Assembly: GCA_023230565.1 (NCBI GenBank)
Contig: JALNXD010000016.1
Span: 973 to 64,972, forward strand
Origin: Syntrophales bacterium
GTDB lineage: Bacteria > Desulfobacterota > Syntrophia > Syntrophales > UBA2210
DNA length: 64,000 bases
Direction: 5' to 3'
The notes beneath the pieces were generated by a model. The model searched no databases. It was not told where the DNA came from and worked only from the letters and a program-made list of their open reading frames with translations. Positions 44,526-63,981 of the stretch are shown piece after piece (within the stretch, counting starts at the first letter, position 1; every line of letters begins with the position of its first letter). The translations under genes and the position numbers were made by a program.

Positions 44526-44570
44526 TGGCGTCCCCACGGAGAGTCGAACCCCGGTCGCCGGCGTGAAAGG
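44526..44570 (-). repeat. Direct repeat 1: 3-prime 45 nt of tRNA-Glu(UUC), not an intact tRNA (att-like)
   Basis: The reverse complement is CCTTTCACGCCGGCGACCGGGGTTCGACTCTCCGTGGGGACGCCA. That covers the anticodon loop CUUUCAC, the T-arm and the acceptor 3-prime strand plus CCA. No D-arm or 5-prime acceptor strand lies upstream. Confidence 0.8.
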
Positions 44571-44800: not shown

Positions 44801-45046
44801 ATGCTTTTGACGATAGGACAAAAAATTCGCCAGGTGCGGAAGAGCCGCAATATCTCGCAGGCGGAGTTGGCTCACGCAATGGGCATGAGCCGGACGACGA
44901 TCGGGCAGATCGAGAACGGTACCGTTCAGGAAATCGGTGTGCGCAAACTAATCCGGCTGCTCGAATTCCTGGAACTGGAACTACGCGTCCGGCCTGCAGG
45001 CAGTCCGCCAACCTTGGAAGAACTCCGTGAAGAGGAGGAATTTTGA
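44801..45046 (+). CDS. hipB: XRE-family HTH antitoxin (HipB-like)
   Basis: IRQVRKSRNISQAELAHAMGMSRTTIGQIENG. ATGA overlap with the hipA-like gene. Confidence 0.8.
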   Translation: MLLTIGQKIRQVRKSRNISQAELAHAMGMSRTTIGQIENGTVQEIGVRKLIRLLEFLELELRVRPAGSPPTLEELREEEEF

Positions 45047-46536: not shown

Positions 46537-46585
46537 TGGCGTCCCCACGGGGAGTCGAACCCCGGTCGCCGGCGTGAAAGGCCGG
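46537..46585 (-). repeat. Direct repeat 2: 3-prime 49 nt of tRNA-Glu(UUC), not an intact tRNA (att-like)
   Basis: The reverse complement is CCGGCCTTTCACGCCGGCGACCGGGGTTCGACTCCCCGTGGGGACGCCA. That is the full anticodon stem-loop through CCA. The sequence beyond it is not a D-arm. Confidence 0.8.
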
Positions 46586-46745: not shown

Positions 46746-47915
46746 ATGCCAATAAATACAAGGTATTATACGAAATACCCAGGCGTGTATTACATCATAG
46801 GAACGGCAATATCTACCGGTAAGCCAGAAAAAATTTATTACATCCGTTACCGTAAAGATGGAAAGGAGATTGAAGAAAAAGCTGGACGACAGTTTGAGGA
46901 TGATATGACTCCGGCACGTGCGGCGCAACGTCGTACTAAACGTATTGAAGGAGAATTATCAAATAAAGAAAGACGTGAGGCAATTGAGGCAGAGAAGCAA
47001 GCACAAGAAAACAAGTGGACAATAGATCGACTATGGGATCTTTACAAAACCACTCTCACAAATGACAAAAGCCGTAAAGTGGATGATAGTAGGTATAAAA
47101 AATACATTAAAGATCGATTCGGAGTTAAGGAACCTCATGAATTAATATTACTTGACGTCGATCGATTGAGATTAAGACTATCTAAAAAATTATCTCTACA
47201 AACCGTCAAACATATTCTGACGCTCCTTGACAGGATCATCAATTTCGGAGTAAAGCGCAATCTCTGTCAGCCACTTTCATTCCACATCAAAAAGCCACAA
47301 GTAAATAATATTAAAACCGAGGATCTGTCGCCTGAACAGCTCAAAAAGCTCTTGGAGGCTATTGAGAAGGATGATAACGTAAATGCAAAAGGCATGATGA
47401 AAATGGCTCTCTATACAGGCATGCGTCGAGGAGAAATGTTCAAACTTAAATGGAACGACATCGACTTTGAACGTGGATTCATTGCGATTAAAGATTCGAA
47501 AGGCGGAGTTGACCAGAAGATTCCCCTCAATGATGCTTCGCGAAAGATGCTTCAGTCACACCCGAAAACAAGAAGCTCTTTTGTATTTCCTGGTCGTGAT
47601 GGAGTACAGAGAGTCAAAATAGATCATGCTGTCGGCCGGATCAAGAAGAATGCTGACTTACCAAAAGAATTCCGACCACTCCACGGCTTGCGACACGTCT
47701 ATGCATCAATGCTGGCGTCAAGTGGCAAAGTCGATATGTATACGCTTCAGCGTCTTCTTACACACAAAAGCTCTGTTATGACTCAGAGATATGCACATCT
47801 TCGTGATGAGGCACTTCGTGGCGCAGCTGATCTTGCTGGATCAATTATTGAAGATGTGGAGAAGAAAAAGATTAATAACCAGAAGGTTGTAAACATCGAA
47901 GACCATAAAAATTAG
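46746..47915 (+). CDS. int: Tyrosine recombinase / phage-type integrase
   Basis: Catalytic residues in TGMRRGE, HGLRHVYAS and LLTHKSSVMTQRYAHL. Confidence 0.9.
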   Translation: MPINTRYYTKYPGVYYIIGTAISTGKPEKIYYIRYRKDGKEIEEKAGRQFEDDMTPARAAQRRTKRIEGELSNKERREAIEAEKQAQENKWTIDRLWDLYKTTLTNDKSRKVDDSRYKKYIKDRFGVKEPHELILLDVDRLRLRLSKKLSLQTVKHILTLLDRIINFGVKRNLCQPLSFHIKKPQVNNIKTEDLSPEQLKKLLEAIEKDDNVNAKGMMKMALYTGMRRGEMFKLKWNDIDFERGFIAIKDSKGGVDQKIPLNDASRKMLQSHPKTRSSFVFPGRDGVQRVKIDHAVGRIKKNADLPKEFRPLHGLRHVYASMLASSGKVDMYTLQRLLTHKSSVMTQRYAHLRDEALRGAADLAGSIIEDVEKKKINNQKVVNIEDHKN

Positions 47916-47982
47916 AGGTCCTATTGACATTTGGGCGGTGTTGTATTACTTTTACAACAGGAAAGAAAAAGGAGGTGAAAAT

Positions 47983-48363
47983 ATGGCCGCCCCCGAGACA
48001 TTTGGCGAATATTTTAAACAAAAAAGGATCGAAAATAATATAACTCTAAGAGAATTTTGTCGGGTGAACGGCTTTGATCCCGGAAATATAAGCAAAATTG
48101 AGAGAGGGCTCTTCCCACCTCCGCAATTGAAGGAAACACTTGAAAAATATGCAAGAGCACTCAACATTCAAGAGGGGACAGATGATTGGTATGAATTCTG
48201 TGATTTAGCCGCAACAAGCGCCGGCAAAATACCCCCCGACATGGTTTCAAATGAAGAATTGATGAAGGCGTTGCCAGTGTTATTCAGAAAAGTGAGAGAT
48301 AAAGATTTTGATAATGAGGATTTGGATAAGCTTATAGGCGCGATTAAAAAGGAACTGCGCTAA
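47983..48363 (+). CDS. XRE-family HTH regulator
   Basis: FGEYFKQKRIENNITLREFCRVNGFDPGNISKIERG. GGAGGTG lies 5 nt before the ATG at 47983. Confidence 0.8.
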   Translation: MAAPETFGEYFKQKRIENNITLREFCRVNGFDPGNISKIERGLFPPPQLKETLEKYARALNIQEGTDDWYEFCDLAATSAGKIPPDMVSNEELMKALPVLFRKVRDKDFDNEDLDKLIGAIKKELR

Positions 48364-48968
48364 TGGTTGAAGCACCGTATCTGAAATACGTTGATGTCAC
48401 GCAGGAAGTTGAATCATTTTTACAAATATATCATCCATCTCGGACTATTCCTATTCCGGTTGAAGAAATAATTGACCTACAGTTGAAAATCAATATTTAT
48501 CCCTTTCCAAGGCTCTATAAAGATTTTGGCCTTAACGGATTCCTCAGCTGCGATCGGTCAACGATCTATGTAGATGAATACCAGTACGAGCAATTTTATG
48601 AAAAATACCGGTATACGCTTGCTCATGAGCTTGGGCATTTTGTGCTTCATAAGAATCTTTATGAAAATTTTAATTTTGAGAATGCAATTCAATATGTGGA
48701 ATGGAGAGAATCAATGTCACCAAATGATATCGACTGGTTTGAAAAGCATGCCGATTGGTTCGCAGAACAACTTTTAGTGCCAGCGAATGCTTTGACGGAT
48801 GCCTGCCAGAACATAATCAATATATATCAGCATGTATATCAAAAATACAAAGATTCTCCCGATGATTTTTGGTCTTATGCTTCCAGTGAAATTGCACGAT
48901 CATTTGATGTAAACCAGCCAGTTGTCGAAGTTAGGATCAAACGAGAAAAGTTGAATTATTCGTATTGA
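48363..48968 (+). CDS. ImmA/IrrE-family (DUF955) metallopeptidase
   Basis: HEXXH motif in YTLAHELGHFVLH. The start overlaps the XRE stop (TAATG). Confidence 0.85.
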   Translation: MVEAPYLKYVDVTQEVESFLQIYHPSRTIPIPVEEIIDLQLKINIYPFPRLYKDFGLNGFLSCDRSTIYVDEYQYEQFYEKYRYTLAHELGHFVLHKNLYENFNFENAIQYVEWRESMSPNDIDWFEKHADWFAEQLLVPANALTDACQNIINIYQHVYQKYKDSPDDFWSYASSEIARSFDVNQPVVEVRIKREKLNYSY

Positions 48969-49027: not shown

Positions 49028-50149
49028 TTGAACGATGTGAAAATGAAGGATCTTGAAAAGACTGAGAAGGTAATTCAGGAATTAATTTTTGACATTACCC
49101 GTGAGAATTTTCTCTCTGATATATCTTCGTATGATAATCGTGACCTTTTAAAACTTGACGGGATACTCTTTTTTGCCTGTGCTGATGCTGTTATAAGACT
49201 TCTTGGGATTAACCCCGAGATTTCCGACATGTGGATTGTACTGGATGAAGCCGCTCTATTTGCAAAGGAATTGACACCGGAAAGAATCGCAAAATTATAT
49301 TTACAAACCGGCGATGAAATCGCCGTTGTTGAACTGATTTACCATCGGGTGAATAGGCATCGGACTCAAGAGGAAGTATTGCGTAGAGTAACTCATCTAA
49401 AATATGGAGGAAATAGACTGTTTAATTTTATAGCTCTTACTAATCAAGACAATCTTGACAAGCTTCTTCGAGAGTACGGGTCGTGTGTAAAAGCTTTTCG
49501 ACATAATTGTGGCATAGGTAGCTCCAGTTTGGATAATGCTCTAAGAGGCAAATATTTTAAAGGAGCAGACGATATTAAAGGAAAGGCTCTTGTTGCGCTG
49601 TATGAGTCTCTTAATGAGTTGAAAGAAAATGTTAAGGTTTCAGAAATAGAAGAACTTGAACCCATCCCACTTTCGCGCTCAGTGAATCAACTTAAATGGG
49701 AAGCGGCTAAAACAGGAATCATGCGTGTGAAACTTGCAGCAACAATTCAAACATACTTGCCGATACTTGAAGGTACGGCAGAAAAGATCCCATTAAAAAT
49801 GCATGATAGGTTTAAGAGTCAGCGAGTAAAAGAGGGAAGAGAAATTCTAGAAAGCGGGGATGTATCTTCTCACGATATTGACAAAATTCTTATAGACGAT
49901 CCCCCCAGACGTTTTAAACGTTCTGGATCGAAGAAAAAGCGGGAAGGTGTTGTTGCGGCGATTGCACTGCAGGAAACCTGCCGAATACTCATTTCTCGAG
50001 CGCGTGATCCGGAAGTAGCAAAGAAGGCAATCACCATGATTGTAAGAGGATATTCAACTGCTGAGATTAGAGCGGAGACAAGGATGAGCGAAAGACAGAT
50101 TCGAGAATATAAAAAACAGCTTAAGGACGTTTCCAGCCTTGATCTGTAA
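49028..50149 (+). CDS. Hypothetical protein with C-terminal HTH-like segment
   Basis: Long ORF with coherent composition. The C-terminus MIVRGYSTAEIRAETRMSERQIREYKKQL looks like a sigma-r4/LuxR-type HTH. The start is uncertain (TTG 49028 or ATG 49043). Confidence 0.5.
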   Translation: MNDVKMKDLEKTEKVIQELIFDITRENFLSDISSYDNRDLLKLDGILFFACADAVIRLLGINPEISDMWIVLDEAALFAKELTPERIAKLYLQTGDEIAVVELIYHRVNRHRTQEEVLRRVTHLKYGGNRLFNFIALTNQDNLDKLLREYGSCVKAFRHNCGIGSSSLDNALRGKYFKGADDIKGKALVALYESLNELKENVKVSEIEELEPIPLSRSVNQLKWEAAKTGIMRVKLAATIQTYLPILEGTAEKIPLKMHDRFKSQRVKEGREILESGDVSSHDIDKILIDDPPRRFKRSGSKKKREGVVAAIALQETCRILISRARDPEVAKKAITMIVRGYSTAEIRAETRMSERQIREYKKQLKDVSSLDL

Positions 50150-51746
50150 AAAACTTGCAGCCTTGTGCAAGTTTGAAGGTGATCTCCATACCGTTCGGGT
50201 TTTCAAAGGTTGTCCAGTTCTTTGCTTTGATGATCCGAGCCTTTCCGGGTTCCATTGTAAGATATAGGCGCGCTTTCTCAAGCCCTCGACCGCCACCCAG
50301 GCCATAATCAGCGCCTTTGTTTTTTTGTATGGCAATTACAGCAATTCCTTTTTTCAGCTTGTCGTAGATTTCTTTAATGAGACCGCCAATTTTGTAAAAC
50401 TCATCATACACTTCCAGAAAATCTATAATATTGATTGCATCGGGCTTTATTACGTCGGCAAAGTTTGAAGCTCTTTCTTTTGGATGGAATTTCCAGTCTT
50501 CAAGTGGAGCATCAAATTTTTTCAGTCTTTTACGCAATTCGAGTGCGCCCATTTCGGATGAAAAATAGTATATCTCGTACCGGGCCATGTTTTTCTGAAC
50601 AAGATTCAGAAGAAAAGCTGTTTTCCCTGAATTCGGCTCGCCTGCAACGACGATGATATTACCCGGCATGATCTGCACATGGTCTTCGATTCGGAAGGGC
50701 CATCTGATATCCATTGCAGTATCGGTCGCACTAATAAAATCAATATCCTCGCACTGTGTGTTAACAGTGCGATATACTCCGTTTTTGTTTCCATGTTTTT
50801 CAATAATTCCAGCTTTATGGAGCCGGTGTACAGCAGCTCGAACAGCATTTTTTTCTTCTTTTGTAACACTTTGTAACGCTTGGTAACACTCTGTAATACT
50901 CCAGTAACCATTTGTAACGCTTACCCAGTCCTCGGCATCCTTGTGAATATTGCGTTCCTTGCGCCTCGCTCTCTCCAAAACGGAGTCAATCTTAACTTGC
51001 GCCTCTTTTGGCGAAAAAAGGGGATTACAATTATTTGCAAGTATATCAAGGATATGCCTTGCATCACTTTCAGACATGCCGCCTTTGATGAGGCAATGTG
51101 CAGTGTGAAAAAGTGAATCATCCCGTTTACCCTGTTCAAAACTTACTGTAACATCTGTAACGTCTTGTAACGGTTGGTAATGATCTGTAACGCTGTTATA
51201 ACTTCCTCTTACATTCCTAATGCTAGAATTTATATTATTTATATAGGCACGCGGCAATGGGCCGGGCTGAATGTCATCAATGCTTAAACCTTCTACCCAC
51301 TGATACCCCTTACCAGTTCCATTTCTAGACGGTGGTGCAACGACATATCCGCCTCTGCCCCTGAAATCGATTCCAGGCAAAGCGCGTGCATTGATTGTCA
51401 GGTTCAAGTCCTCAGGATATTTAAAATATAGATGCGTACCCCCGCGCGGCGTTTGAACTGTGGGGGTTACTATTCCTTCGGGAAAATACTCAAGCTCTAT
51501 GTCTTCACTATAGTCCTGGGCATAGCGGTCAATATCAACAACACAGATTTCGCTTATCGGACCTGTAACGACTCCGATCATCGCCTTGGGGTATTGATTC
51601 CACCATTCCCGAATTTCATCTTCTGTGGGTAACCGGTCTTGAAATTCTTTCCATGCGATGAGAGGTTTCTTGTTTTTCCCAACAGGTATTATTGAATATC
51701 CATTTCTCAGATATTGGATTGCCGCCTTCAGATAAATTTTTTCCAT
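50121..51746 (-). CDS. Bifunctional primase-polymerase (PrimPol) fused to a P-loop helicase-like replicase
   Basis: N-domain: GYSIIPVGKNKKPLIAWKEFQ, VVDIDRY, TPRGGTHLYF, GYVVAPPS. C-domain: Walker A GEPNSGKT. The ATG at 51746 has GGAGGTG upstream. The track ORF extends to 51899. Confidence 0.8.
   Translation of the reverse strand: MEKIYLKAAIQYLRNGYSIIPVGKNKKPLIAWKEFQDRLPTEDEIREWWNQYPKAMIGVVTGPISEICVVDIDRYAQDYSEDIELEYFPEGIVTPTVQTPRGGTHLYFKYPEDLNLTINARALPGIDFRGRGGYVVAPPSRNGTGKGYQWVEGLSIDDIQPGPLPRAYINNINSSIRNVRGSYNSVTDHYQPLQDVTDVTVSFEQGKRDDSLFHTAHCLIKGGMSESDARHILDILANNCNPLFSPKEAQVKIDSVLERARRKERNIHKDAEDWVSVTNGYWSITECYQALQSVTKEEKNAVRAAVHRLHKAGIIEKHGNKNGVYRTVNTQCEDIDFISATDTAMDIRWPFRIEDHVQIMPGNIIVVAGEPNSGKTAFLLNLVQKNMARYEIYYFSSEMGALELRKRLKKFDAPLEDWKFHPKERASNFADVIKPDAINIIDFLEVYDEFYKIGGLIKEIYDKLKKGIAVIAIQKNKGADYGLGGGRGLEKARLYLTMEPGKARIIKAKNWTTFENPNGMEITFKLAQGCKFFTDQGWKRP
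50861..50920. repeat. Iteron cluster A: six GTAAC/GTAAT cores at 10-11 bp spacing
   Basis: TTGTAACACT TTGTAACGCT TGGTAACACT CTGTAATACT CCAGTAACCA TTTGTAACGC. The cluster lies inside the replicase gene. Confidence 0.6.
51146..51193. repeat. Iteron cluster B: five GTAAC/GTAAT cores at 9-10 bp spacing
   Basis: CTGTAACAT CTGTAACGT CTTGTAACGG TTGGTAATGA TCTGTAACGC. It has the same orientation as cluster A and lies 285 bp from it. Confidence 0.6.
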
Positions 51747-51922
51747 TTCGCACCTCCATAAATAATGCCTGGTACCCCCTATACGGGCTGAAACTTGAAG
51801 AAACGGCGGTGACAAAAAAATCCATGGCAAAAGATTAACAAACCGAAAAAAACCACCGCCGTTTTTCAGAAGAACTGACCGTATATAGGGCGTAAGCAAA
51901 AATTTAGTAATGGAGGTGACCC

Positions 51923-52102
51923 ATGAAGCTTATCGCTGAAATTAGCCAAAGCGGTGTTGACAGAGTTTCGATTCAGTCAACTACCGATCGAGAGGAACGT
52001 CTGGGTGAAGTTTTACTTCATCTCATTCGGCCTCACTTGAAAAACATCAACGCTGATTTGAAGGTTTTTGGAGAACATCTCTATGATTTGAAGAAAAAGT
52101 AA
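51923..52102 (+). CDS. Small hypothetical protein (59 aa)
   Basis: ATG preceded by GGAGGTG. It is below the ORF-track size cut-off. Translation: MKLIAEISQSGVDRVSIQSTTDREERLGEVLLHLIRPHLKNINADLKVFGEHLYDLKKK. Confidence 0.4.
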   Translation: MKLIAEISQSGVDRVSIQSTTDREERLGEVLLHLIRPHLKNINADLKVFGEHLYDLKKK

Positions 52103-52113
52103 GGGGATTACTG

Positions 52114-52298
52114 ATGATTTTGCTGAGAAGGATGCAGCAGACAGACTCGGATTGGCTGTCCAAACCCTTCGCAACTGGCGATGTAAGGGGAGAGGACCAC
52201 GGTACATAAAATTTTCCAGTCGGAGCATCAGATATGCGGTTGAAGATCTTAAGGAGTTTTGTGCCTTACATTCAATTACACCTGATCGACATACATAA
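52114..52298 (+). pseudogene. Excisionase/AlpA-like HTH gene with an apparent 1-nt frame break just after its start codon
   Basis: The frame 52116-52298 encodes DFAEKDAADRLGLAVQTLRNWRCKGRGPRYIKFSSRSIRYAVEDLKEF... That frame has no ATG/GTG. The well-placed ATG at 52114 (AAGGGG 7 nt upstream) is in the +1 neighbouring frame. Confidence 0.5.
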
Positions 52299-52346
52299 TG
52301 ATCCGGTATTTAAAGCAAACGTAAATACTTTAGATAGGGTTTAGAC

Positions 52347-52922
52347 ATGCCGCCATCAAGAATCGATAAAATTAAATTATCACGAATGCTTAGAGAGGGT
52401 AAAACGCAGAAGCACTGTGCTAAAGTCTTTGGTGTTACCGAGGGGGCTATCAGCCAAGCGAAGAAAGAGCTGAATTTAAGCGTTGTCAAGAACGTAGCCC
52501 TGGAAAACGCTCATCGTGTCGTAGATAAGAATATCGATGCGATCAGTCAGCTTCAGAAGATAAATGGCTACGCGAACGAGCTTCTTGACCTGCTCATGCG
52601 CTGGAATCGAGGCGATGGCGAAGCTTTGCAGATTCTCGAAACTCAAGTGAGGAAAGTTCGTGTAAAGGGATCGGAAGAAGAACTCTTTGAATACAAATTC
52701 AAGGACCCTCGCGAGTTGGCGTTAAGAGCGATGGCGGAGATTCGGGGGCAACTGAACCTTCAACTTGAAATATTTAGGATCCTTTACGATATGAGGGCAA
52801 TCGAGGAATTTCAACAGGAAGTGCTCGATGCGATCGGCGAGGTTCAACTGGAAGTGAGGGAGAGGATCATTTGGCGCCTGAAGGAACGGCGCGCCTTACG
52901 AGGAACCTTAGATGTTCGATAA
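52347..52922 (+). CDS. HTH-domain protein of unknown function (possibly small-terminase-like or a regulator)
   Basis: N-terminal GKTQKHCAKVFGVTEGAISQAKKEL. The rest is predicted helical. Confidence 0.55.
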   Translation: MPPSRIDKIKLSRMLREGKTQKHCAKVFGVTEGAISQAKKELNLSVVKNVALENAHRVVDKNIDAISQLQKINGYANELLDLLMRWNRGDGEALQILETQVRKVRVKGSEEELFEYKFKDPRELALRAMAEIRGQLNLQLEIFRILYDMRAIEEFQQEVLDAIGEVQLEVRERIIWRLKERRALRGTLDVR

Positions 52923-52961
52923 CTAAAATTTGAAACACCGAATATTGGAAGGTACTTATGA

Positions 52962-53324
52962 ATGATTGACAAAGATACCCTCTACAATAATTTGCTGACG
53001 TATATCGGAAATAGATATACCAATTGTTCAATTCCTCTTTTTCCCAGCGAGAAAAAGATTGCAGGATGTAAGAAAGCCTGCGAGGCATTTTGTCGCACCT
53101 TCCCCACCGAAATTCCGGGAAGCTATCAACCTCCAGAAAAAGAACCAGACGGCAACCTTACTGCGCGTTATACATTCTGGGTGAAAAACTTCACGGTAAT
53201 ATTTACAGTGTTTATCGTGAGGCCTGAACTCTGTGACAGGGCGAAAGGAGCTCCTGAATTGAACCCTTTTCTTAGGCAATTGGAACAATTTTGGTCAAGA
53301 AAAGAAAGGTTGAAAACTACATAA
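52962..53324 (+). CDS. Hypothetical protein
   Basis: ORF only; no recognisable motif. Confidence 0.3.
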   Translation: MIDKDTLYNNLLTYIGNRYTNCSIPLFPSEKKIAGCKKACEAFCRTFPTEIPGSYQPPEKEPDGNLTARYTFWVKNFTVIFTVFIVRPELCDRAKGAPELNPFLRQLEQFWSRKERLKTT

Positions 53325-53402
53325 CCATAGGCCGGCGCAGACCCATATGCAAAAGGTCCTGACTCACCCCATGAAGACGATCCTGATTGCTATGAAAGTG
53401 CG

Positions 53403-53942
53403 TTGGAGCTCGCAGCAATTTATGGTCATATCGATGTGTTTGAACTTAAACAAATAAAACTTGATCCCACGCATAAAAGAGCAAGTGATATCCTCAGATG
53501 CTGCTGTTTTAGAGATAATAGCAAACTTCTGAAAATTCTTCTTGAAAAAGGATTTAATCCCAAGCAGATGGAAAACAAGGGATCGTCACTTATACAATCG
53601 ATAATTTCCTCAATGGACAGGGAATATAACCCTTACACATACAGAAAAGAAAAAAAAGATATCGATACGTGGAGTGCACGCGAAAAAATTAAGATGATAC
53701 ATATGCTTGTAAGATACGGTGCCAAATGGTTACCCAAAGATGATAGAGATATAAATTACATTCGACGATCATTACTAAAAATGAAGGATGATTATGTCAT
53801 GGAATTTGTCTGGATAATGTCAGAGTATCAGACCTGTACCCGTGCAAGTATCGAAATGCTTTTGAAGACGCCAAAAATACGCTCATTAGTTTCTCAACAC
53901 GCTGGTAGACTGAATGAACTGATGGCGGCGTTTAATTCATAA
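53403..53942 (+). CDS. Ankyrin-repeat-like protein, apparently N-terminally truncated
   Basis: The frame is open from 53331 and reads AGADPYAKG...SALELAAIYGHIDVFE...LKILLEKGFNP (ANK-like). It has no ATG, and the first possible start is the TTG at 53403. Confidence 0.45.
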   Translation: MELAAIYGHIDVFELKQIKLDPTHKRASDILRCCCFRDNSKLLKILLEKGFNPKQMENKGSSLIQSIISSMDREYNPYTYRKEKKDIDTWSAREKIKMIHMLVRYGAKWLPKDDRDINYIRRSLLKMKDDYVMEFVWIMSEYQTCTRASIEMLLKTPKIRSLVSQHAGRLNELMAAFNS

Positions 53943-54062
53943 ATACCTTGACAAAGAACAGTAATAGAGTTAGTGATTTCCTTGTTTTTACCGAATTATT
54001 TCTTATGCTCTAGCATACCTCAAGCGACTGTACCCAAAGGAGGATTATGGTCTTATTACGAT

Positions 54063-54093
54063 AACCCTGTTTGACAAGAAACAGGGTTTTTTT
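54063..54093 (+). terminator. Rho-independent terminator
   Basis: AACCCTGTT-tgacaaga-AACAGGGTT followed by TTTTTT. Confidence 0.7.
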
Positions 54094-54185
54094 GTTTGTA
54101 ATAAGTCAAAATATATTTTTACAAAATTCAGTATTTTTGTGCCCTCAAAATTAAAGAAATTGGCGATAAATCTTAAGCGGCAGGG

Positions 54186-56459
54186 GTGGACATGAATACC
54201 GAAGTACATCAATCACAAGCAATTAATCTATTTACGTTTATACGTGAATTCGCACAGCTTAATCAAAAGCCTGTTGAAACACTTGACTCATATATCAAAA
54301 CCTTTTGGTTGGATCAGATACCGCATGAACCGGAGTGCAGCTGTGCGGCATGGGATGGCCAAGATGAGCATGACAATGAGATGACAATAGAGAATTGGCT
54401 TTCTATAGAGCGTCCTGAACGTCCTGATTTACCAAATGCACCAGAAACAACAGAACCTTGGATAAACAAAATTCAATGGGAAGACTCTTCAGTTGAATAT
54501 CCAGAGCTATATTCAAAAATTTTAAATCCGCAATGGGATATAAAAAGTTCTGAAGATGTACCTAAATTTTTGGAGCTGCAAGATTATCCTCACGTCAAAG
54601 AGACATGGGACAATTATATTGAGGACGCGTGGTGGCCGTGGGCGGAGAAAGATCGTGTCAAAGTACATGTGCAAGAATGTTATGATGCGCTATTCAGTTT
54701 GCACCGGACACAGCTTACAATGGGTGAGCAGTATGAGTTTTTGCTTGCCTCTGGATGTCTCCACTGGACTACGCCATCTGGAAGAAAAATAAAGCGACAT
54801 CTGTTGACGTTGCCGATTACCATTGAATTCGACTCTGTTAATGCAATCGTGTCAGTAAAATCGGCCGAAAGTACTGCAGAAGTCCAACTCGAAAGTGACA
54901 TGCTCGGGATAAATGAGCAACCAGGCATAGACATAGCAAATGATTCAGAAATAAGACGTGCGATGCTTGGGGGTAACCTGTTCCATCCAGATGCAAAGAC
55001 ATTATTAACGGCCTGGGTACAGGGACTAAGTTCAGAGGGAACGTTTAAAGATATCTTTTCCGAGGTGCAGGGTACATCGTCATCAAAGCCAGAAGTCTGG
55101 TTTGCGCCTGCACTGATCGTGCGTCGAAGGACCCAAAGAAACCTCATAGCGGCATGCGATGCAATCATCAAGAATCTTCAGACTAATGGTGCTGATATTC
55201 CCCAAGGAATTCGAAAGATCATTGGCGAACTCGGAGTGGATACCAATTCATTTTCTGATTATGACGATAACGAAGGTAATGAACGAAGTTATGTCGATGT
55301 GGGTGATGGGGAGATTTATTTTCCCCTCGATTACAACGATGATCAGAAGAGGATTTTACAAACGCTCAACAACCAGGCCGGTGTGCTCGTGCAAGGCCCC
55401 CCAGGTACAGGCAAGTCTCAGACCATCGCTAACCTTATCTGCCACCTATTGGCAACAGGTAAACGCATCCTGGTGACAAGCCAAAAAGCCCCAGCATTAC
55501 GTGTTTTAAAAAATAAGCTCGGGGAATATGCCCCCGATGTTGCAAACATGTGCGTTATGGTACTTGGAGAAGGCAATGATGAACAGCAGGAGTTGCGGCG
55601 TTCGGTTACGGAGATTGTAAACCGCTATTCGAATTGGTCGGATCGGCATTCACAAAAGAAGATCCAGGAATTTCGAACAACACTTCGAAAAGCACGAGAG
55701 TCGGAGGCCAAAGCCATCGAGAATCTATGTGCACTTCGTCAGAAAGAAACAGAAAATTTCCCCTTCGGCAACTACACAGGAACTCTGGAGCAAATTGCTC
55801 GTCAAATCCGCGACGAAGAAAGTCGTTTTACATGGTTCCGTGATCGGCTTCCCGGGGACTGCTCGCTGCTTGATGCACCTTTACCGCCCTTACCGATAGT
55901 GGATGAGTGGCTTACAAAAATCCTCTCCTTTTTGAGGGAAATCTCTACAGACGAAGAAGAGCGCTGTAGCAAACATCTGCTGAATCTCGATCAGGTGGTT
56001 GATCCCGTTGAGTTCTCCCGTATTGTTAAAGAAGAAAAAGTGGCGCTTGATGCTGTTGAAACACAACGGGAGTTTTTATCGGACCAGTGGCAAAAGGGGG
56101 TGGATCAGGCAGACGACAAAATTCTGATATCAATGTTAGGTGAACTTGATGAATATTTAGGGTGCCTCCGTTCATTTTTGAACAATGGAACCAGTTGGTT
56201 AAAACTGGCGGCGCAGGATGTGCTGAGTGGTAATGCGGCTCGATGGCAGGCACTGCATCACAGGAGCCAAGACCTCTTAAATGAAATAAGAGAAAAAACC
56301 ACCGTGTCGGAGATCTCGAAATTTCAGGTATTGAAGTTCGGTCCCAACGAGCAGTCCTGCAGGATGCGCGTGACCTTCGGGCTCATATTGCTCAGCAAGG
56401 TCGCCTTGGATTCTGGATTTTACGCCCTGCCTGTGTCAAACAGGCACTATATCTGCTAA
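54186..56459 (+). CDS. SF1 (Upf1/DNA2-like, DUF4011-type) helicase-nuclease, N-terminal segment up to a frame break
   Basis: Walker A VLVQGPPGTGKSQTIANLI with a DUF4011-like N-region. The last ~45 codons before the stop look non-native. Confidence 0.8.
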   Translation: MDMNTEVHQSQAINLFTFIREFAQLNQKPVETLDSYIKTFWLDQIPHEPECSCAAWDGQDEHDNEMTIENWLSIERPERPDLPNAPETTEPWINKIQWEDSSVEYPELYSKILNPQWDIKSSEDVPKFLELQDYPHVKETWDNYIEDAWWPWAEKDRVKVHVQECYDALFSLHRTQLTMGEQYEFLLASGCLHWTTPSGRKIKRHLLTLPITIEFDSVNAIVSVKSAESTAEVQLESDMLGINEQPGIDIANDSEIRRAMLGGNLFHPDAKTLLTAWVQGLSSEGTFKDIFSEVQGTSSSKPEVWFAPALIVRRRTQRNLIAACDAIIKNLQTNGADIPQGIRKIIGELGVDTNSFSDYDDNEGNERSYVDVGDGEIYFPLDYNDDQKRILQTLNNQAGVLVQGPPGTGKSQTIANLICHLLATGKRILVTSQKAPALRVLKNKLGEYAPDVANMCVMVLGEGNDEQQELRRSVTEIVNRYSNWSDRHSQKKIQEFRTTLRKARESEAKAIENLCALRQKETENFPFGNYTGTLEQIARQIRDEESRFTWFRDRLPGDCSLLDAPLPPLPIVDEWLTKILSFLREISTDEEERCSKHLLNLDQVVDPVEFSRIVKEEKVALDAVETQREFLSDQWQKGVDQADDKILISMLGELDEYLGCLRSFLNNGTSWLKLAAQDVLSGNAARWQALHHRSQDLLNEIREKTTVSEISKFQVLKFGPNEQSCRMRVTFGLILLSKVALDSGFYALPVSNRHYIC

Positions 56460-56509
56460 ACAGTGTAACTGTTGACGGTCGTAAGTGCGATAAGCAGGAG
56501 ACACTGGAG

Positions 56510-59200
56510 ATGCTGATCGATTGGCTGGAGCTTTCGCAGGCAATTAGGCAACTTGATGAACAGTGGGCAGCGGTGATGAATCCAAAACAGGACAATATTC
56601 CCCTCAATCAGCAGATCAGCGGCTACAAACATGCTCATTTAAAGCTGGATGCCGTCTTTGAACTTCGAACATTGTCCCACCGCCTTGATGAAAGCCTCAA
56701 ACCCTTGGGTCGTAGTGTTTCGCCTGCATGGCATGAGCAAGGGGAGGTTGAGAAACTTCGAAACATTTTAGAGGCCCAGATTGCACAGAGGCAGCTAAGA
56801 AAAGCGTCACTAATAATTGATAACTTGGAGGATTCCGTTAGATCATCCTGCCTTCATCCTGATGCGGCGCCTGAGAATCATGCTCTCCGCAACGCAATTA
56901 AGGGTCGATTTATTGATGAGTATACAAGGTCCCATTCAGAATTAAAAGGGCTGTGGAACTTGCGGAGGTCGGTTGAAGAGCGTGATCGATGGTATGCGGA
57001 GCTAATGAACAAACTTCCATGCCTGGCTGTGGATCTGAGAGAATCGTACACTGACCCTGAGTGGGATTCACGTCTGGCCGAAGTGACGGATGCCTGGAAT
57101 TGGGTATGTGCCGATGCATGGCTCCATCAGATAACCGATCCTGAAGCAGAAAAACTATTGGATCGCCGAATAAAGCAATGCAGGAAAGAAAGCTCTTTGG
57201 CTCTGTCATCGCTGGCAGCTGAGCTGGCCTGGAAGCATTGCATGAACAGCATGACAGAGGGTCACTTCCAAGGCCTTATGGCATGGCGGAAGGCTATGGA
57301 AAAATTAGGGAAGGGAACAGGCAAATACGTAGAACGCAACAGAAGCATTGCACGTGAACGATTGGAGGAGTGCCGTGGTGCAATCCCTGCCTGGATCATG
57401 CCACTATATAAGGTCTTGGATACGGTTGCTATTGGAAAGGGTATTTTCGATGTAGCAATTATTGATGAGGCAAGTCAGTCGGGAGCAGATGCGTTGTTTC
57501 TAACTTTCCTGGCGAAAAAAATAGTGATTGTCGGGGACGATCAGCAGATCCGGCCGGCAAACGTCGGAATTGACTATAATGACGTTCACCAGCTTCAAAG
57601 TCGTTTCCTGCGTGACATCCCCAAATGGGACATCTTCGATCCAACTGGTAGCCTCTTTAGCATTGCTGAAGTTCGTTTTGGAAACCCCATACGCCTGCGA
57701 GAACATTTCCGCTGCATGCCGGAGATTATCGCATTTTCTAATCGTCTCTGCTATCAGGATCAGCCGCTTATACCATTGCGTCAGTTCGGTAATGATAGAC
57801 TCAAACCGGTTTTATGCACCCATTATATTGAAGGGGGTTATCAGGAGGGACGTAAAACAAACCCCAGAGAAGCAGAGGCGATTTGTGAAGCAATCGTGCG
57901 CTGCTGCGAAGATTCCCTTTACGAGGGCAAGAGTTTTGGTGTGATCAGCTTGCTCCACTCATCTGAACAGGACCGTTTGATCGAACAACTCCTGTTCAAG
58001 CGCCTCGACGCTGAGGAAATAGTAAATCGAAACATAGTATGCGGCGACGCCTATGATTTTCAGGGTGATGAAAGGGATGTCATATTTTTAAGCATGGTAT
58101 CTGCACGAAGTAATAACGGCCGAATTGGTACGATGGCTGATGAAAAAGCAAAACGTCGCTTCAATGTTGCCGTCAGTCGTGCGCGTGATCAAGTCTTTCT
58201 CTTTCACTCGGTTCAAGAGAATGAGTTGGGGCAGAACTGTTACCGTCGCCGATTGCTCGCTCATATGAAACAGCCAGAGCCGGATGTTTCTGTATTGCCT
58301 CCTGAGGTTGATTCTATAACAGATCTTCGACGTATTGCTGAAACTGCTAAAAGAAACTTCGATTCTCCCCCACACCCCTTCGATAGCTGGTTTGAAGTGG
58401 ATGTCTATCTCATTATCGCGGAGCAGGGGTACATGGTAATCCCCCAATATAAAATACATGGGTACCGCATTGACTTGGTTGTTGAGGGTGAACATAGGAA
58501 GCTTGCTGTCGAGTGCGACGGTGACAGATGGCACGGTCTTGAGCGACATGAGGAGGATCTTCGTCGTCAACGGGAATTGGAACGCTGTGGTTGGGAGTTC
58601 TTTCGTGTGCGTGGCAGCAGTTTTTATCGTGATCCCGCAAAAGCCATGCTTCCTCTCTGGGAGATCCTGAGTAGTTCGGAATTCAGTTCCAGGGATGTTG
58701 ATAGTAAGGACCATGAAGAACCCCGGCGGCAGAGAAGTGATGGAGAAGGCTACCCCGAAGAAAGAAAAGAAGAAGCCGTCAATGATGACGCAAAGACAGA
58801 CAGCACAAGTAAAACAGGCACTTCTTCAGAATTTTCTTCGGGCGATGCCAACGAAAGGGATGAAGAAACAACAAAAGGCAGCTCTCTGGAAGCAGGCGAA
58901 CGATCCTATGGGCAACACACAATCGATGATGTTTTGTCAATGTCGAGCAGGCAACTTGGCAGAATCATATGCGATATCTTGGAAAAATGCCCGAATTACT
59001 CCTCAAAAAAAGATGATCTAACCAAGCGGGTCTGTGGTTATTTTGGTGTCCTGACGAGGGGACGGCCACGGCAAAAGCTCGAAAAGAAAATTGGGTGGGC
59101 CATTTCTCATCTCAAGAAGGTCGAAAAAATAGAGGTTTACAGGGCAAAAAATATGCGGGTACGGCTTTTATCTCCACCGAGTCAAGAGAAGTTGTTTTAA
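56510..59200 (+). CDS. Same helicase-nuclease, C-terminal segment: helicase motifs II-VI plus a DUF559/Vsr-like endonuclease domain
   Basis: VAIIDEASQ, VIVGDDQQIRP, GDAYDFQGDERDVIFLSMV, FNVAVSRARDQVFLFHS. The nuclease region is YRIDLVVEGEHRKLAVECDGDRWH...GWEFFRV. This frame is open from 56285. Confidence 0.85.
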   Translation: MLIDWLELSQAIRQLDEQWAAVMNPKQDNIPLNQQISGYKHAHLKLDAVFELRTLSHRLDESLKPLGRSVSPAWHEQGEVEKLRNILEAQIAQRQLRKASLIIDNLEDSVRSSCLHPDAAPENHALRNAIKGRFIDEYTRSHSELKGLWNLRRSVEERDRWYAELMNKLPCLAVDLRESYTDPEWDSRLAEVTDAWNWVCADAWLHQITDPEAEKLLDRRIKQCRKESSLALSSLAAELAWKHCMNSMTEGHFQGLMAWRKAMEKLGKGTGKYVERNRSIARERLEECRGAIPAWIMPLYKVLDTVAIGKGIFDVAIIDEASQSGADALFLTFLAKKIVIVGDDQQIRPANVGIDYNDVHQLQSRFLRDIPKWDIFDPTGSLFSIAEVRFGNPIRLREHFRCMPEIIAFSNRLCYQDQPLIPLRQFGNDRLKPVLCTHYIEGGYQEGRKTNPREAEAICEAIVRCCEDSLYEGKSFGVISLLHSSEQDRLIEQLLFKRLDAEEIVNRNIVCGDAYDFQGDERDVIFLSMVSARSNNGRIGTMADEKAKRRFNVAVSRARDQVFLFHSVQENELGQNCYRRRLLAHMKQPEPDVSVLPPEVDSITDLRRIAETAKRNFDSPPHPFDSWFEVDVYLIIAEQGYMVIPQYKIHGYRIDLVVEGEHRKLAVECDGDRWHGLERHEEDLRRQRELERCGWEFFRVRGSSFYRDPAKAMLPLWEILSSSEFSSRDVDSKDHEEPRRQRSDGEGYPEERKEEAVNDDAKTDSTSKTGTSSEFSSGDANERDEETTKGSSLEAGERSYGQHTIDDVLSMSSRQLGRIICDILEKCPNYSSKKDDLTKRVCGYFGVLTRGRPRQKLEKKIGWAISHLKKVEKIEVYRAKNMRVRLLSPPSQEKLF

Positions 59201-59428: not shown

Positions 59429-60982
59429 ATGAAAAACAACAACGGGAAATCTCTGGAAAACTGGATATGGGATGCTGCATGCAGCATTCGGGGGGCTCAG
59501 GACGCCCCCAAGTATAAGGATTTTATCCTGCCGCTGGTCTTTACCAAGCGGCTCTGTGATGTGTTTGACGACGAGCTGAACCGGATTGCCGAAAAGGTCG
59601 GATCCCGGGCCAAGGCCTTCAAACTGGTGACGCGTGATCAGAAACTGGTCCGCTTTTACCTGCCTCTCGAGCCGAAAAAACCGGACGGTCCGGTCTGGTC
59701 GATCATTCGCACGTTATCCGATGCCATCGGGGAAGGCCTTACCACTTACCTACGGGCCATCGCCAAGGCCAACCCCATGCTGGAAGGAATTATCGATCGG
59801 GTGGATTTCAATGCCACCACGCACGGCCAGCGCGATATCGACGATGACCGCCTGTCCAATCTGATCGAGAAGATCTCCGAAAAACGTCTGGGGTTGAAGG
59901 ATGTGGAGCCGGACATCATAGGCCGCAGCTACGAATACCTCATCCGCAAGTTTGCCGAGGGCGGGGGGCAGTCCGCGGGCGAGTTCTACACGCCCAAAGA
60001 GGTGGGCATGGTCATGGCGAAGATTATGGACCCGGAGCCGGGCATGGCCATCTACGATCCCTGTTGCGGGTCGGCGGGTCTGCTTATCAAGTGCGAACTG
60101 GCGCTTGAAGAGAAAATGGCGCTTCGCAGCAAGGACAAATACGCGCCCCTGCAGCTCTATGGCCAGGAATATATCGGCAATACCTGGGCCATGGCCAACA
60201 TGAATATGATCATCCACGACATGGAAGGTGAAATCGAGATCGGCGACGCCTTTCGCAACCCCAAATTCCGACAGGGCGGGCAGCTTCGGACCTTTGACCG
60301 CGTGACGGCCAATCCCATGTGGAATCAGAACTGGTTCACCGACAAGGATTACGACAACGATGAACTGGGCCGCTTTCCACAGGGCGCAGGGTTCCCCGGC
60401 AAGCAGTCCGCCGACTGGGGGTGGGTCCAGCACATAGCCGCCTCGCTCAACGGGAGCGGCCGGGCGGCGATCGTCCTCGATACCGGCGCCGCCTCGCGCG
60501 GTTCGGGAAATGCCGGCAAGAACAAAGAGAAGGAAGTCCGCAAGTGGTTTGTGGAAAACGACCTTATAGAGGGCGTTGTCTATCTGCCGGAGAACCTCTT
60601 CTACAACACCTCGGCCCCGGGCATCCTGCTCTTTCTCAACCGGAATAAACCCGAAGGGCGGCAGGGGAAGCTCTTCCTGATCAATGCGAGCAGGGTTTTC
60701 GCCAAGGGCGATCCCAAAAACTACCTGCCCGACGACGGGATTGAACGAATCGCTTCGGTTTTTTTGGACTGGAAGGAAGAGGAGAAGTTTAGCCGCATCG
60801 TGGACAAGGCGGAAATTGGCAAGAACGACTATAACATCTCTCCGTCGCGCTATATTCATACAAATGATGCCGAGGAATACCGGCCGATAGCCGAGATAGT
60901 GGCGGAACTGGATGCCCTGGAAACTGATGTGGCGGAAACGAATGCTGCCCTGCGAGCGGTGCTGGATAAGTTGGGGGTGTGA
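59429..60982 (+). CDS. hsdM: Type I R-M N6-adenine DNA methyltransferase (HsdM)
   Basis: HsdM N-domain (LWDAACSIRG-type), motif I DPCCGSAGLL, motif IV ANPMWN. Confidence 0.9.
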   Translation: MKNNNGKSLENWIWDAACSIRGAQDAPKYKDFILPLVFTKRLCDVFDDELNRIAEKVGSRAKAFKLVTRDQKLVRFYLPLEPKKPDGPVWSIIRTLSDAIGEGLTTYLRAIAKANPMLEGIIDRVDFNATTHGQRDIDDDRLSNLIEKISEKRLGLKDVEPDIIGRSYEYLIRKFAEGGGQSAGEFYTPKEVGMVMAKIMDPEPGMAIYDPCCGSAGLLIKCELALEEKMALRSKDKYAPLQLYGQEYIGNTWAMANMNMIIHDMEGEIEIGDAFRNPKFRQGGQLRTFDRVTANPMWNQNWFTDKDYDNDELGRFPQGAGFPGKQSADWGWVQHIAASLNGSGRAAIVLDTGAASRGSGNAGKNKEKEVRKWFVENDLIEGVVYLPENLFYNTSAPGILLFLNRNKPEGRQGKLFLINASRVFAKGDPKNYLPDDGIERIASVFLDWKEEEKFSRIVDKAEIGKNDYNISPSRYIHTNDAEEYRPIAEIVAELDALETDVAETNAALRAVLDKLGV

Positions 60983-60985: not shown

Positions 60986-62308
60986 ATGACGGAATGTAAA
61001 AGTTCACCTGAACTCGCAATGCTGCCATCTGATTGGCCCTGTTTTCAAGTTGATGATATTTTCCATATTCAACAAGGCAAACAGGTGTCCCAAAAAAACC
61101 GACTTGGTGACAATCAAAAGCCATTTTTGAGAACAAAAAATGTGTTGTGGAGGCGACTTGATCTATCTGAGTTGGACCAGATGCATTTCACTGATAATGA
61201 TGAAGAACGGCTCGCTCTCCATAATGGAGACCTTCTTCTCTGTGAAGGCGGGTGGGTTGGTCGAACCGCTATTTGGCGTGACGAAATAGAAAGCTGTTAT
61301 TACCAGAACCATTTGCACCGCCTTCGCGTATCCAATGAAACAGCTGATCCAATGTTTGCCCTTTTTTGGTTCTGGTATGCATTTGAATTTGGGAACATTT
61401 ACTTCGGTCATAAGAATGTAACAACAATCCCTAATATGTCGAAATCGCGATTAGGTGGGCTTCCTATGCCACTTCCACCTCTCTCCGAACAACGCCGCAT
61501 TGCAGCGGTATTGTCGCTGGTACAGAAAGCGATTGAGGAGCAGGAACGGCTGATCGCGTTGACTACCGAACTGAAGAAGACCCTGATGTACAAGCTCTTC
61601 ACCGAGGGCACCCGCGGCGAATCCCAGAAGCAGACCGAAATCGGCCCTATACCGGAGAGTTGGAAGTTGCAGCGTTTACAAAATTTGTGTGACCTTATCG
61701 TAGACTGTCCACACACAACTCCGAGATTTGTTGACTTTGGTGTACGTATTGTTCGCAATTTCAACTTCCGAGATGGGAAATTTATTGCAGAACCTTCTTT
61801 TTACACGACGGAACAAGAATATAAAAATAGAACTAAAAGAGCTATACCAACATCTGGAGATGTTTTATTTAGTAGAGAGGCTCCAATTGGTGAGGCTTGC
61901 GTTATTCCTTCTGACGTGCGCATGAGTTTAGGGCAGCGTACTATGCTTCTGCGACCTAAATGCGACAAACTAGATTCACATTTCCTTGTTTATAGTTTTT
62001 ATTCCAATAATGTTAAAAAATGGATGGTTACTACTGCAGGAGGAATGACTGTCCCTCATTTGAATGTAGCGGATGTTAGACAAATGTTTGTCCCTGTTGC
62101 TCCGCTTGAAGAACAATTTATTATATCAAAATACCTGCTTAGTATTGAGATTAAACTTGAATTATGTGTGAGCATTAAAAATAAATTAAATGATCTATTT
62201 CGAACACTCCTGCACCAACTCATGACAGCTCAAATCCGCGTCAACGACCTCGACCTCGCCGAATTGGGTATTGAGTTGAGCGAAGGACAACAGGAGGTAG
62301 TTTCATAA
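60986..62308 (+). CDS. hsdS: Type I R-M specificity subunit (HsdS), two target-recognition domains
   Basis: Central and C-terminal conserved helices (LPPLSEQRRIAAVL...; LEEQFIISKYL...LLHQLMTAQIRV) flank two low-GC variable domains. Confidence 0.9.
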   Translation: MTECKSSPELAMLPSDWPCFQVDDIFHIQQGKQVSQKNRLGDNQKPFLRTKNVLWRRLDLSELDQMHFTDNDEERLALHNGDLLLCEGGWVGRTAIWRDEIESCYYQNHLHRLRVSNETADPMFALFWFWYAFEFGNIYFGHKNVTTIPNMSKSRLGGLPMPLPPLSEQRRIAAVLSLVQKAIEEQERLIALTTELKKTLMYKLFTEGTRGESQKQTEIGPIPESWKLQRLQNLCDLIVDCPHTTPRFVDFGVRIVRNFNFRDGKFIAEPSFYTTEQEYKNRTKRAIPTSGDVLFSREAPIGEACVIPSDVRMSLGQRTMLLRPKCDKLDSHFLVYSFYSNNVKKWMVTTAGGMTVPHLNVADVRQMFVPVAPLEEQFIISKYLLSIEIKLELCVSIKNKLNDLFRTLLHQLMTAQIRVNDLDLAELGIELSEGQQEVVS

Positions 62309-62332: not shown

Positions 62333-62782
62333 ATGGAAGCACGTAACAGGGACATGCAAGACTGGTATGGCAAGATAAAGCGTGGAGAGATAAAACTGCC
62401 TAGATTCCAGCGATTCGAGGAGTGGGACAGGCACCGTATTTGCAGTCTTTTGGAAGCAGTGATTCATAACCTTCCCTTGGGAATAACACTGGTGTTGGAA
62501 GTCGGAGATCAGGAGAAGTTTATCTCCCGGTTTCTGGAAACGGCCCCTCAAAACGGCGGACGTGTCTATGAGCAACTGCTTGACGGTCAGCAGCGACTGC
62601 ACTTTGGCGGGCGTTTTACAACAATTACGACTGGGAAACCTACTTCATCTATATCAAGGCGTTCGATAACTACGACAAAGATGAAGACCGCGAAGACATG
62701 TCGGTCTTTTTCCGGGGACGGTATATTAAAAAGAACGGAGAAAAGTATCCGATTTGGTGTGATGATCCGGCGCAATGTTTGA
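62333..62782 (+). CDS. GmrSD-like DUF262 domain, N-terminal segment; native sequence ends at about 62596
   Basis: KLPRFQRFEEW and DGQQR motifs. Everything after DGQQRL looks out of frame. Confidence 0.75.
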   Translation: MEARNRDMQDWYGKIKRGEIKLPRFQRFEEWDRHRICSLLEAVIHNLPLGITLVLEVGDQEKFISRFLETAPQNGGRVYEQLLDGQQRLHFGGRFTTITTGKPTSSISRRSITTTKMKTAKTCRSFSGDGILKRTEKSIRFGVMIRRNV

Positions 62783-63981
62783 AAAGGGGGTTTATCCCCA
62801 CTCATTTACTGAAACCGGAAGATATGCAGAACGAGATCGATGCATGGATCGAAAAAGAAACCACGGCTCTGGAGCCGGAGGACGGCAAGGATGAATTAAA
62901 GGTATTCTACGATTTTAAAAAACGCGTGAGCGACAAGATAAAAGATCTGCGGTCGATTGTTGCCAACTATAACCTTCCGTACCTGTCGCTATCCCCGCAT
63001 ACGGAAAAGAGTGTGGCACTAAGTGTGTTTATCAACATGAACACCAACAGCAAGCCTCTCTCTACCTATGACATCATCGTCGCGGAAGTAGAAAACGTGA
63101 TGGGGCGATCACTACATGACCTGCAGGATGAACTGGATGAGAAAGATCCAAACATCGGAAGATATTCCGAGCTCTCAGACATGATTCTCACTACTTCGGC
63201 ACTCCTGCAGAATGCCCTGCCGAACCAACGAGGCGCCTGGGATATGGATAAACGGATCATGGTGGAAAACTGGGAGGTTATGGAACGTGGCCTAAGCCGG
63301 ATGGCAGAGTTTCTGAAAAATGAGGGAATCTTTGATCGGCAGCGTCTTCCCACCAATGCTGTGCTGGATGTTATTGCCGCTCTTTACGCGGAGATACCGG
63401 AATATGGAGACAAAAGAGGGCAGGATGAGCTTTTATTGAAAAAATACCTTTGGCATTCTTTTTTCACAGATCGCTATGAGAATGCCGCTGCTACTCATGC
63501 CTGCTCGGATTTTGTCGCGCTGAAAAAGGTGATTCGTGCGGAAACCAAGGATAGCGGGGACAGCTACAGCATCGGTGAAGTTCCCATCTTCAAGGAGCAC
63601 GCGCTGGTTGAAAAAGAGGAACTGCTGACCGCCGAATGGCCTAAACGGGCCACTATTCGTGGTCGGGCGATTCTTGCGGTAGCATGCCGTTTGGGAGCGC
63701 AGGACTTCTCAACCGGAGAACGTTTGGATGTCAACAATATTGACCAGCGTCACTACCATCATGTGTACCCCGACGCGTTACTAAAGGAAGCAGAAATCAA
63801 CAGTTTCCTGGCACTGAATTGCGCACTGATCTCGGACAAGACCAATATTTCCATTGGTCGCAAAGATCCATTGGAATACATGAAGGATAGGTACAAATGG
63901 ACATCAGAAGAGATAGTGAGTGAACGGCTTCAATCTCATTTGATACCGATTCACGAGTTGGCTAATGGAGGATTGACGTAA
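62698..63981 (+). CDS. Remainder of the GmrSD-like protein (rest of DUF262 plus the DUF1524 His-Me nuclease domain)
   Basis: From 62596 this frame reads TALWRAFYNNYDWETYF..., continuing the DGQQR motif. The C-terminus HYHHVYPDALL...NCALISDKTNISIG is the DUF1524 signature. Confidence 0.8.
   Translation: MSVFFRGRYIKKNGEKYPIWCDDPAQCLKRGFIPTHLLKPEDMQNEIDAWIEKETTALEPEDGKDELKVFYDFKKRVSDKIKDLRSIVANYNLPYLSLSPHTEKSVALSVFINMNTNSKPLSTYDIIVAEVENVMGRSLHDLQDELDEKDPNIGRYSELSDMILTTSALLQNALPNQRGAWDMDKRIMVENWEVMERGLSRMAEFLKNEGIFDRQRLPTNAVLDVIAALYAEIPEYGDKRGQDELLLKKYLWHSFFTDRYENAAATHACSDFVALKKVIRAETKDSGDSYSIGEVPIFKEHALVEKEELLTAEWPKRATIRGRAILAVACRLGAQDFSTGERLDVNNIDQRHYHHVYPDALLKEAEINSFLALNCALISDKTNISIGRKDPLEYMKDRYKWTSEEIVSERLQSHLIPIHELANGGLT

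Follow-up and report, generated by a model that had tools for sequence, protein, structure and literature searches.

A probably recently inactivated single-gene helicase-nuclease, related to Prometheus and Hhe, in a genomic island of a Syntrophales bacterium

Prometheus is a single-protein system, ProA, for which defence has been validated in Pseudomonas aeruginosa; the order of its domains is described as DUF4011, a DNA2-like helicase with an insertion, a nuclease and DUF3320, all of them required, and a two-gene variant is reported from a Lokiarchaeon (PMC13700489). Hhe is a single-gene helicase-nuclease whose activity is triggered by phage DNA-metabolism genes (bioRxiv 10.1101/2024.10.10.617714). 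Here we describe a gene related to both, located at 54186-59200 of a 64,000-nucleotide stretch of contig JALNXD010000016.1 (assembly GCA_023230565.1) from a Syntrophales bacterium; this whole stretch is referred to as the window. The gene encodes a superfamily 1 (SF1) helicase fused to a Vsr-like nuclease and is broken by the loss of a single base. We consider it a recently inactivated copy (pseudogene) of a stand-alone gene for a 1,669-residue helicase-nuclease, with a probability of roughly 0.7. The lesion and its reality are established, as are the domains of the protein and the setting of the gene in an island. Judged by sequence, the family to which it belongs appears to be a widespread, unnamed sister of ProA, Hhe and the PADLOC candidate PDC-S37, and a member of neither ProA nor Hhe.

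One gene in two reading frames

The reading frames of the gene and the site of the break are as follows.

54186-56459, plus strand: open reading frame 1 (ORF1), 757 amino acids (aa) in frame 0, counted from GTG 54186
56510-59200, plus strand: ORF2, 896 aa in frame 2, which is open from 56285 onward and has ATG 56510 as its earliest start codon
54192-56297, plus strand: native 5' part of the gene, frame 0, residues 3-704 when numbered from GTG 54186 (tblastn, alignment, gene calls)
56297-59200, plus strand: native 3' part of the gene, frame 2 (ORF list, tblastn, alignment)
56293-56298, plus strand: run of six A (A6), likeliest site of the lost base; switch bracketed to 56288-56315, identical in three assemblies
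56298-56459, plus strand: out-of-frame tail of ORF1, 53 codons and a stop, without counterpart in homologues
54063-54088, plus strand: hairpin resembling a terminator, with a T-run, behind the upstream ORF (consensus scan only)

Together, the two ORFs make up one gene of about 1,670 codons. Searches were run with a read-through of 1,671 aa, in which the two frames are joined at the A6 run. When 22 full-length homologues were compared with the DNA by tblastn, the match left frame 0 and continued in frame 2 within 56288-56315, while the numbering of the homologues remained continuous. No gap was needed to align the read-through with homologues across the junction, and frame 2 holds the family motif DLEVxGLGxRSxRAVLxDA...GFWxFRPxVVKQxLYL, indicating that the gene is short of exactly one base compared with the family, most likely lost at the A6 run. 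Because the base was lost in or next to this run, inside the helicase insertion, translation stops after 53 wrong codons, and the half with Walker A is cut off from motifs II-VI and the nuclease. The start codon is likely ATG 54192, with three gene calls of 755 aa; from there the uninterrupted product has 1,669 aa. The terminator-like hairpin with its T-run suggests that the gene forms its own transcription unit.

These results agree with the original prediction, made from the letters of the window alone, which had placed both ORFs at these coordinates and a -1 change in a stretch that includes the A6 run. Frame 2 is indeed open and protein-like back to 56285, and the tail of ORF1, described there as non-native, has no counterpart in homologues after about 56298. 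The motifs that it named were also found, namely Walker A (GPPGTGKS) in ORF1, and IIDEASQ, VGDDQQIRP, FQGDERDVIF, VAVSRARD and the nuclease core in ORF2.

More than 1,900 homologues of the read-through were found, the best of them 57-58% identical over 100% of its length. Those with full coverage are single proteins of about 1,640-1,790 aa. Relatives, among them more than 120 protein-database matches and the homologues of 10 genomes from the same order, have a single open frame of 1,480-2,100 aa. The 10 genomes come from 150 of this order, and their homologues are all uninterrupted (1,524-2,100 aa); in named genomes, a single ORF longer than 1,400 aa is present at 19 of the 24 loci checked. 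Since the homologues are single ORFs, the fusion is the native state, and the alternative of two separate native genes was not borne out.

Domain architecture and kinship of the intact protein

The read-through divides into the following regions.

54192-55250, plus strand: N-terminal domain of about 350 aa, family-conserved, with several invariant Trp; AlphaFold2 (AF2) model with a predicted local distance difference test score (pLDDT) of 89.7 and a predicted template modelling score (pTM) of 0.82
55332-55808, plus strand: first part of SF1B helicase domain 1A, with motif I (Walker A GPPGTGKS, 55395-55418) and motif Ia (Pfam AAA_11, residues 383-541; PDB profiles)
55809-57439, plus strand: about 545 aa inserted between motifs Ia and II, with the frame break inside (Pfam, tblastn, alignment)
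57443-57556, plus strand: helicase motifs II (DEASQ, 57464-57478) and III (VGDDQQ) (Pfam AAA_11 profile positions 213-252; invariant columns)
57680-58201, plus strand: helicase domain 2A with motifs IV-VI (FQGDERD, VAVSRARD) (Pfam AAA_12, 63 bits; PDB matches Upf1 and Sen1)
58391-58666, plus strand: Vsr-like PD-(D/E)xK nuclease, REase_MTES_1575 (PF18741), 104.9 bits against a Pfam cut-off of 38.2
58670-58921, plus strand: acidic linker of low complexity with predicted disorder (pLDDT around 50 or lower over most of model residues 121-190)
58922-59188, plus strand: C-terminal winged-helix domain (pLDDT >95; fold matches forkhead, LmrR, Z-alpha and F93)

The helicase is of the Upf1 type. In Pfam, AAA_11 is split into residues 383-541 and about 1,091-1,128 and is followed by AAA_12, and the SF1B motifs I, Ia, II, III, V and VI are present (GPPGTGKS, DEASQ, VGDDQQ, FQGDERD and VAVSRAR, all in invariant columns). 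By sequence, the only solved relatives of this helicase are Upf1, Sen1, DNA2 and IGHMBP2 (E 1e-17 to 1e-14). The insertion, scanned in two pieces (55701-56297 and 56297-57499), gave no Pfam match. In the nuclease, the core D...E-C-D-G-D-x-W-H is intact, and its AF2 model resembles the catalytic domain of I-Bth0305I (3r3p; TMt 0.77, root-mean-square deviation 2.6) and also Bax1, the R2 endonuclease and Hjc. ORF2 has in addition a weak Pfam match to DUF559 (23 bits). The C-terminal winged helix aligns with the DUF3320 (PF11784) segment of two more distant relatives (P0045 and P0096) and has no Pfam match of its own at E≤5.

At the N-terminus, the original prediction had seen a DUF4011-like region, which we could not find: residues 1-380 have no match in Pfam even at E≤5, and DUF4011 (PF13195) is absent from the whole genome at E≤1 while it was detected in four control genomes. 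PF13195 is likewise listed for none of the 120 listed homologues. The N-terminal domain is present in 1,266 cluster representatives, likewise at their N-terminus. Foldseek returned no significant match to a solved fold (best E 0.27 in PDB; in BFVD, E 8e-3 with a TM of 0.26).

Profile searches of the translation, which the original prediction had proposed, thus identified AAA_11, AAA_12, REase_MTES_1575 and a weak DUF559, with PDC-S37 and ProA as the best matches among defence profiles. In PADLOC, PDC-S37 (66 + 169 bits) ranks before MkoC and Hhe. In NCBIfam, ProA ranks first, with 66.3 bits for ORF1 and 155.8 bits for ORF2, and Hhe reaches 45.7 + 103.3 bits; the equivalog cut-offs are 1,500 bits for ProA (NF058533) and 2,000 bits for Hhe (NF042953).

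Like ProA, the uninterrupted protein is a giant single chain with a DNA2/Upf1-like helicase that carries a large insertion, and a nuclease and a small C-terminal domain follow the helicase; the ProA match, the top one in NCBIfam, spans ORF2 residues 22-923. It differs from ProA in its N-terminal 370 aa, which are unmatched and lack DUF4011; DUF3320 was not detected (Pfam, E≤5) in the tail that aligns with the DUF3320 segment of P0045 and P0096. With Hhe (NF042953, PADLOC PDLC02194; DUF4011, helicase, Vsr nuclease) it shares an SF1 helicase and a Vsr/DUF559-type nuclease in one chain and the single-gene format, whereas it has no DUF4011 and carries another N-terminal domain, without a solved-fold match. 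The link to Hhe drawn in the original prediction therefore holds as homology (46 + 103 bits) and fails as membership against the NCBIfam cut-off of 2,000 bits. Hhe was reportedly first described in a 2020 defence-island screen, where it is listed as 'Gao_Hhe', and not in work on P2/P4 hotspots, to which it had been ascribed.

PDC-S37 is the best match over the Walker A region, motifs II-VI, the nuclease and the tail, but only positions 292-388 and 936-1449 of the 1,550 in its profile are matched, and the N-terminus and the insertion are unmatched. The eukaryotic SF1B helicases Upf1, Sen1, DNA2 and IGHMBP2 have the helicase core motifs in common with the protein, but not the fused Vsr-like nuclease, the N-terminal domain or the 545-aa insertion. 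As for Mokosh (MkoA/MkoC), the Upf1-like helicase region matches MkoC with 120 bits, and the match is limited to the helicase. The Mokosh helicase is paired with a nuclease of the phospholipase D (PLD) type, not with a Vsr-like one.

From the analogy with ProA and Hhe, we infer that the intact protein would be a single-protein anti-phage system. In such a system, the N-terminal and winged-helix modules might sense or bind a nucleic-acid state linked to infection, the helicase would translocate in the 5' to 3' direction, and the nuclease would then cut DNA. The case for a defence role consists of homology (ProA, Hhe, PDC-S37, MkoC) and of context, an island with type I restriction-modification (RM), GmrSD and toxin-antitoxin genes.

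The break in independent assemblies and its age

The reality of the break was judged on assembled consensus sequences (ENA, Logan and JGI). An ENA MEGAHIT contig and the Logan assembly of run SRR6484323 both match the window at 100% identity across 10,691 nt, A6 included, and both encode the exact ORF2 product. A cluster look-up returned a variant of ORF1 (C53F) from JGI, and the corresponding contig (sample 3300044603) equals window positions 53343-57824 with 2 single-nucleotide polymorphisms (SNPs), no gaps and the same A6. The break is shared only by near-identical copies (99.96% identity). The presence of the identical A6 in independent assemblies indicates that the frameshift is inherited.

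An error of sequencing or assembly, with an intact gene in the organism and a base dropped from the consensus, might be expected at a homopolymer and in a draft genome of 90 contigs. Two different assemblers, however, gave the identical sequence, and the independent JGI assembly shows the same A6 despite its 2 SNPs. In addition, the remaining 46 kb of the contig contain long unbroken ORFs, one of 2,072 aa, and no intact near-identical protein was found among 5.8 billion clusters, in which the best match is 58% identical. We therefore consider such an artefact extremely unlikely. The original prediction had called the gene either inactivated or mis-assembled; the A6 in three assemblies and an insertion sequence (IS) in the JGI copy support the first term and contradict the second.

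This IS adjoins the gene at the following point.

57824-57825, plus strand: point where the JGI variant meets the end of a multi-copy IS (JGI contig comparison; the window itself is intact here)

The sister population has thus disrupted the same gene a second time, and since its copy runs into a multi-copy IS, the frame is not being preserved there. The same IS is found at no fewer than 10 contig ends of the present genome, including the end of the contig that holds the window (C16), right after the GmrSD-like gene. In the JGI sample (locus L095, 4590-4715), its orfA begins MERIPNAVYTKELREEAVK. A longer or shorter allele of the A-run was not found in an exact-pattern scan of JGI metagenome contigs, a set that possibly lacks near-identical records. 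Independently, a homologue in Candidatus Kuenenia (GCA_900232175.1; locus L096, 5001-10556) is split by a DDE transposase gene into 770 aa and 617 aa.

The lesion appears to be young. Compared with 39 homologues, the read-through departs from near-invariant positions at 2 of 229 sites, both L to M, which equals the median of intact homologues, and all helicase and nuclease motifs are kept; inactivation is therefore recent.

A read-through without further decay would also be expected if the gene could be switched between OFF and ON by leaky or programmed -1 recoding or by phase variation at A6, through slippage of the ribosome, of RNA polymerase or of the DNA tract. The break does fall on an A-run read as lysine codons, and two other genes of the same element (see below) likewise need a -1 correction. 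However, the zero-frame codons at A6 are GAA AAA ACC and form no canonical X XXY YYZ heptamer, and structure in the 92 nt downstream is no better than in shuffled sequences (minimum free energy -23.9, with shuffles averaging -24.5; z = 0.18). Six A's are short for efficient transcriptional slippage or for tract instability. The break was seen in none of the homologues examined, which are single ORFs; the break in the GmrSD-like gene lies outside any homopolymer, and the sister population carries an IS in the same gene. A switchable defence gene is thus improbable.

The two halves could also work as separate chains, ORF1 supplying the N-terminal domain and Walker A, and ORF2, started at ATG 56510, supplying motifs II-VI and the nuclease. 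Each half retains all its motifs, ATG 56510 is preceded at 9 nt by a Shine-Dalgarno-like AGGAG, and there is the precedent of the two-gene Prometheus variant of the Lokiarchaeon (PMC13700489). But the cut falls within the first RecA domain, an ORF2 product from 56510 would lack some 70 conserved residues, among them the GFWxFRPxVVKQxLYL block, and ORF1 is burdened with 53 junk residues. Moreover, no examined homologue is split here with clean gene ends, the broken ones being disrupted by an IS or fragmented, and the JGI variant has its IS within ORF2. We regard an active two-chain enzyme as highly improbable and retain the reading of a recently inactivated gene.

The surrounding element and the family

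The gene lies among the following neighbours.

43727-44474: MNT/HepT
45043-46245: HipA
46746-47915: integrase
47938-48363: XRE
48363-48968: ImmA
50121-51899, minus strand: PrimPol-DnaB-like helicase
52347-53942: three small ORFs of unknown function
54186-59200: the helicase-nuclease gene
59429-60982: hsdM
60986-62308: hsdS
62333-63981: GmrSD-like gene (DUF262)

The gene is cargo of an integrative element of the integrase/PrimPol type at a tRNA-Glu attachment (att) site, beside type I RM genes and a GmrSD gene. A tRNA 3' half is present in two direct copies (44526-44570 and 46537-46581, identical at 44 of 45 positions) that flank the HipA segment; a third copy is found near position 579 of contig C54, the contig on which the intact tRNA-Glu probably lies. 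This arrangement fits integration in tandem at a single tRNA att site, the far end of the element being on another contig. Four ORFs of the element (49028-50149 and 52347-53942; 373, 191, 120 and 179 aa) gave no significant match in Pfam, PADLOC or PHROG; the 373-aa one had a single weak match, to a PHROG of unknown function.

The first 3,400 bases of contig C16 (window 14-2395) carry a full hsdR with its ATG at base 146 of the contig, and at the other end of the contig, hsdM, hsdS and GmrSD are followed by the IS end (contig bases examined, 64944-65066). The first 123 nt of C16 are a different repeat, common to the ends of contigs C6 and C7. Were the two ends linked, they would form one split RM locus or a circular molecule. 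No terminal overlap that would indicate a circular contig was found, and the two ends adjoin different repeats.

The GmrSD-like gene is itself broken by a one-base loss at about 62596 (DGQQR / TALWRAF), not in a homopolymer, a break that the ENA and Logan assemblies both show unchanged. As the stop codon of this gene falls within the IS end that closes the contig, a 3' truncation is possible too. A further small frame, 52083-52300, encodes a helix-turn-helix protein like AlpA or an excisionase (...DFAEKDAADRLGLAVQTLRNWRCKGRGPRYIKF...) and lacks a start codon that could be used; the ATG ahead of a T4 run (52117-52120) is off by one base, as would fit the loss of a single base in a third gene of the element. 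The three genes (AlpA-like, helicase-nuclease and GmrSD) would then each be one base short, and no such loss is found in the 46 kb flank. The break may in that case be something other than random decay. Element-specific deletion-prone replication is conceivable because the element encodes its own PrimPol-helicase; alternatively, selection might rapidly have silenced a nuclease cargo that was autotoxic after acquisition and kept the methylase and specificity genes intact. Either explanation is a long shot.

The gene is single-copy in the present genome, its DNA has no match in 40 relatives, and the spread of the family is patchy across many phyla, which shows that it is accessory. It likewise had no match in E. 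coli genomes. No neighbour gene recurs across 24 homologous loci, indicating that the gene stands alone. Among 120 neighbours of homologues we found GmrSD twice, ResIII twice, BrxA, BrxB, SMODS and SNF2, together with many housekeeping genes.

Housekeeping genes being common beside homologues, the family could have a role outside immunity, as a DNA-repair or replication helper or as a selfish nuclease of mobile elements. The nuclease fold occurs in homing and retrotransposon endonucleases as well, and the defence role of the family is a putative one, assigned by analogy. Nevertheless, the nearest named relatives are all anti-phage proteins or candidates, the patchy distribution points to horizontal transfer, the local setting is a defence island, and copies are often disrupted, as expected for costly nucleases. 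A non-immune role therefore seems unlikely.

Some observations weigh against the reading of the gene as a dead copy of a defence gene. Neighbourhoods of the homologues are only modestly enriched in defence genes, and the scores lie far under the equivalog cut-offs of ProA and Hhe. The AGGAG before ATG 56510 means that ORF2 could be translated separately, and the lysine A-run may slip at a low rate and yield a trace of full-length protein.

For the annotation, the result is settled: the ORFs called 'AAA ATPase' and 'DUF559' belong to a single dead gene and are neither two genes nor an assembly error. The locus also provides a dated example of early decay in a defence island: one population has the frameshift alone, and a sister population has it together with an IS. 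The more useful lead is the family, which has thousands of members in many phyla, most of the examined ones intact. Its architecture parallels that of Prometheus and Hhe, and only the N-terminal domain looks new. This domain is a candidate for a new infection sensor.

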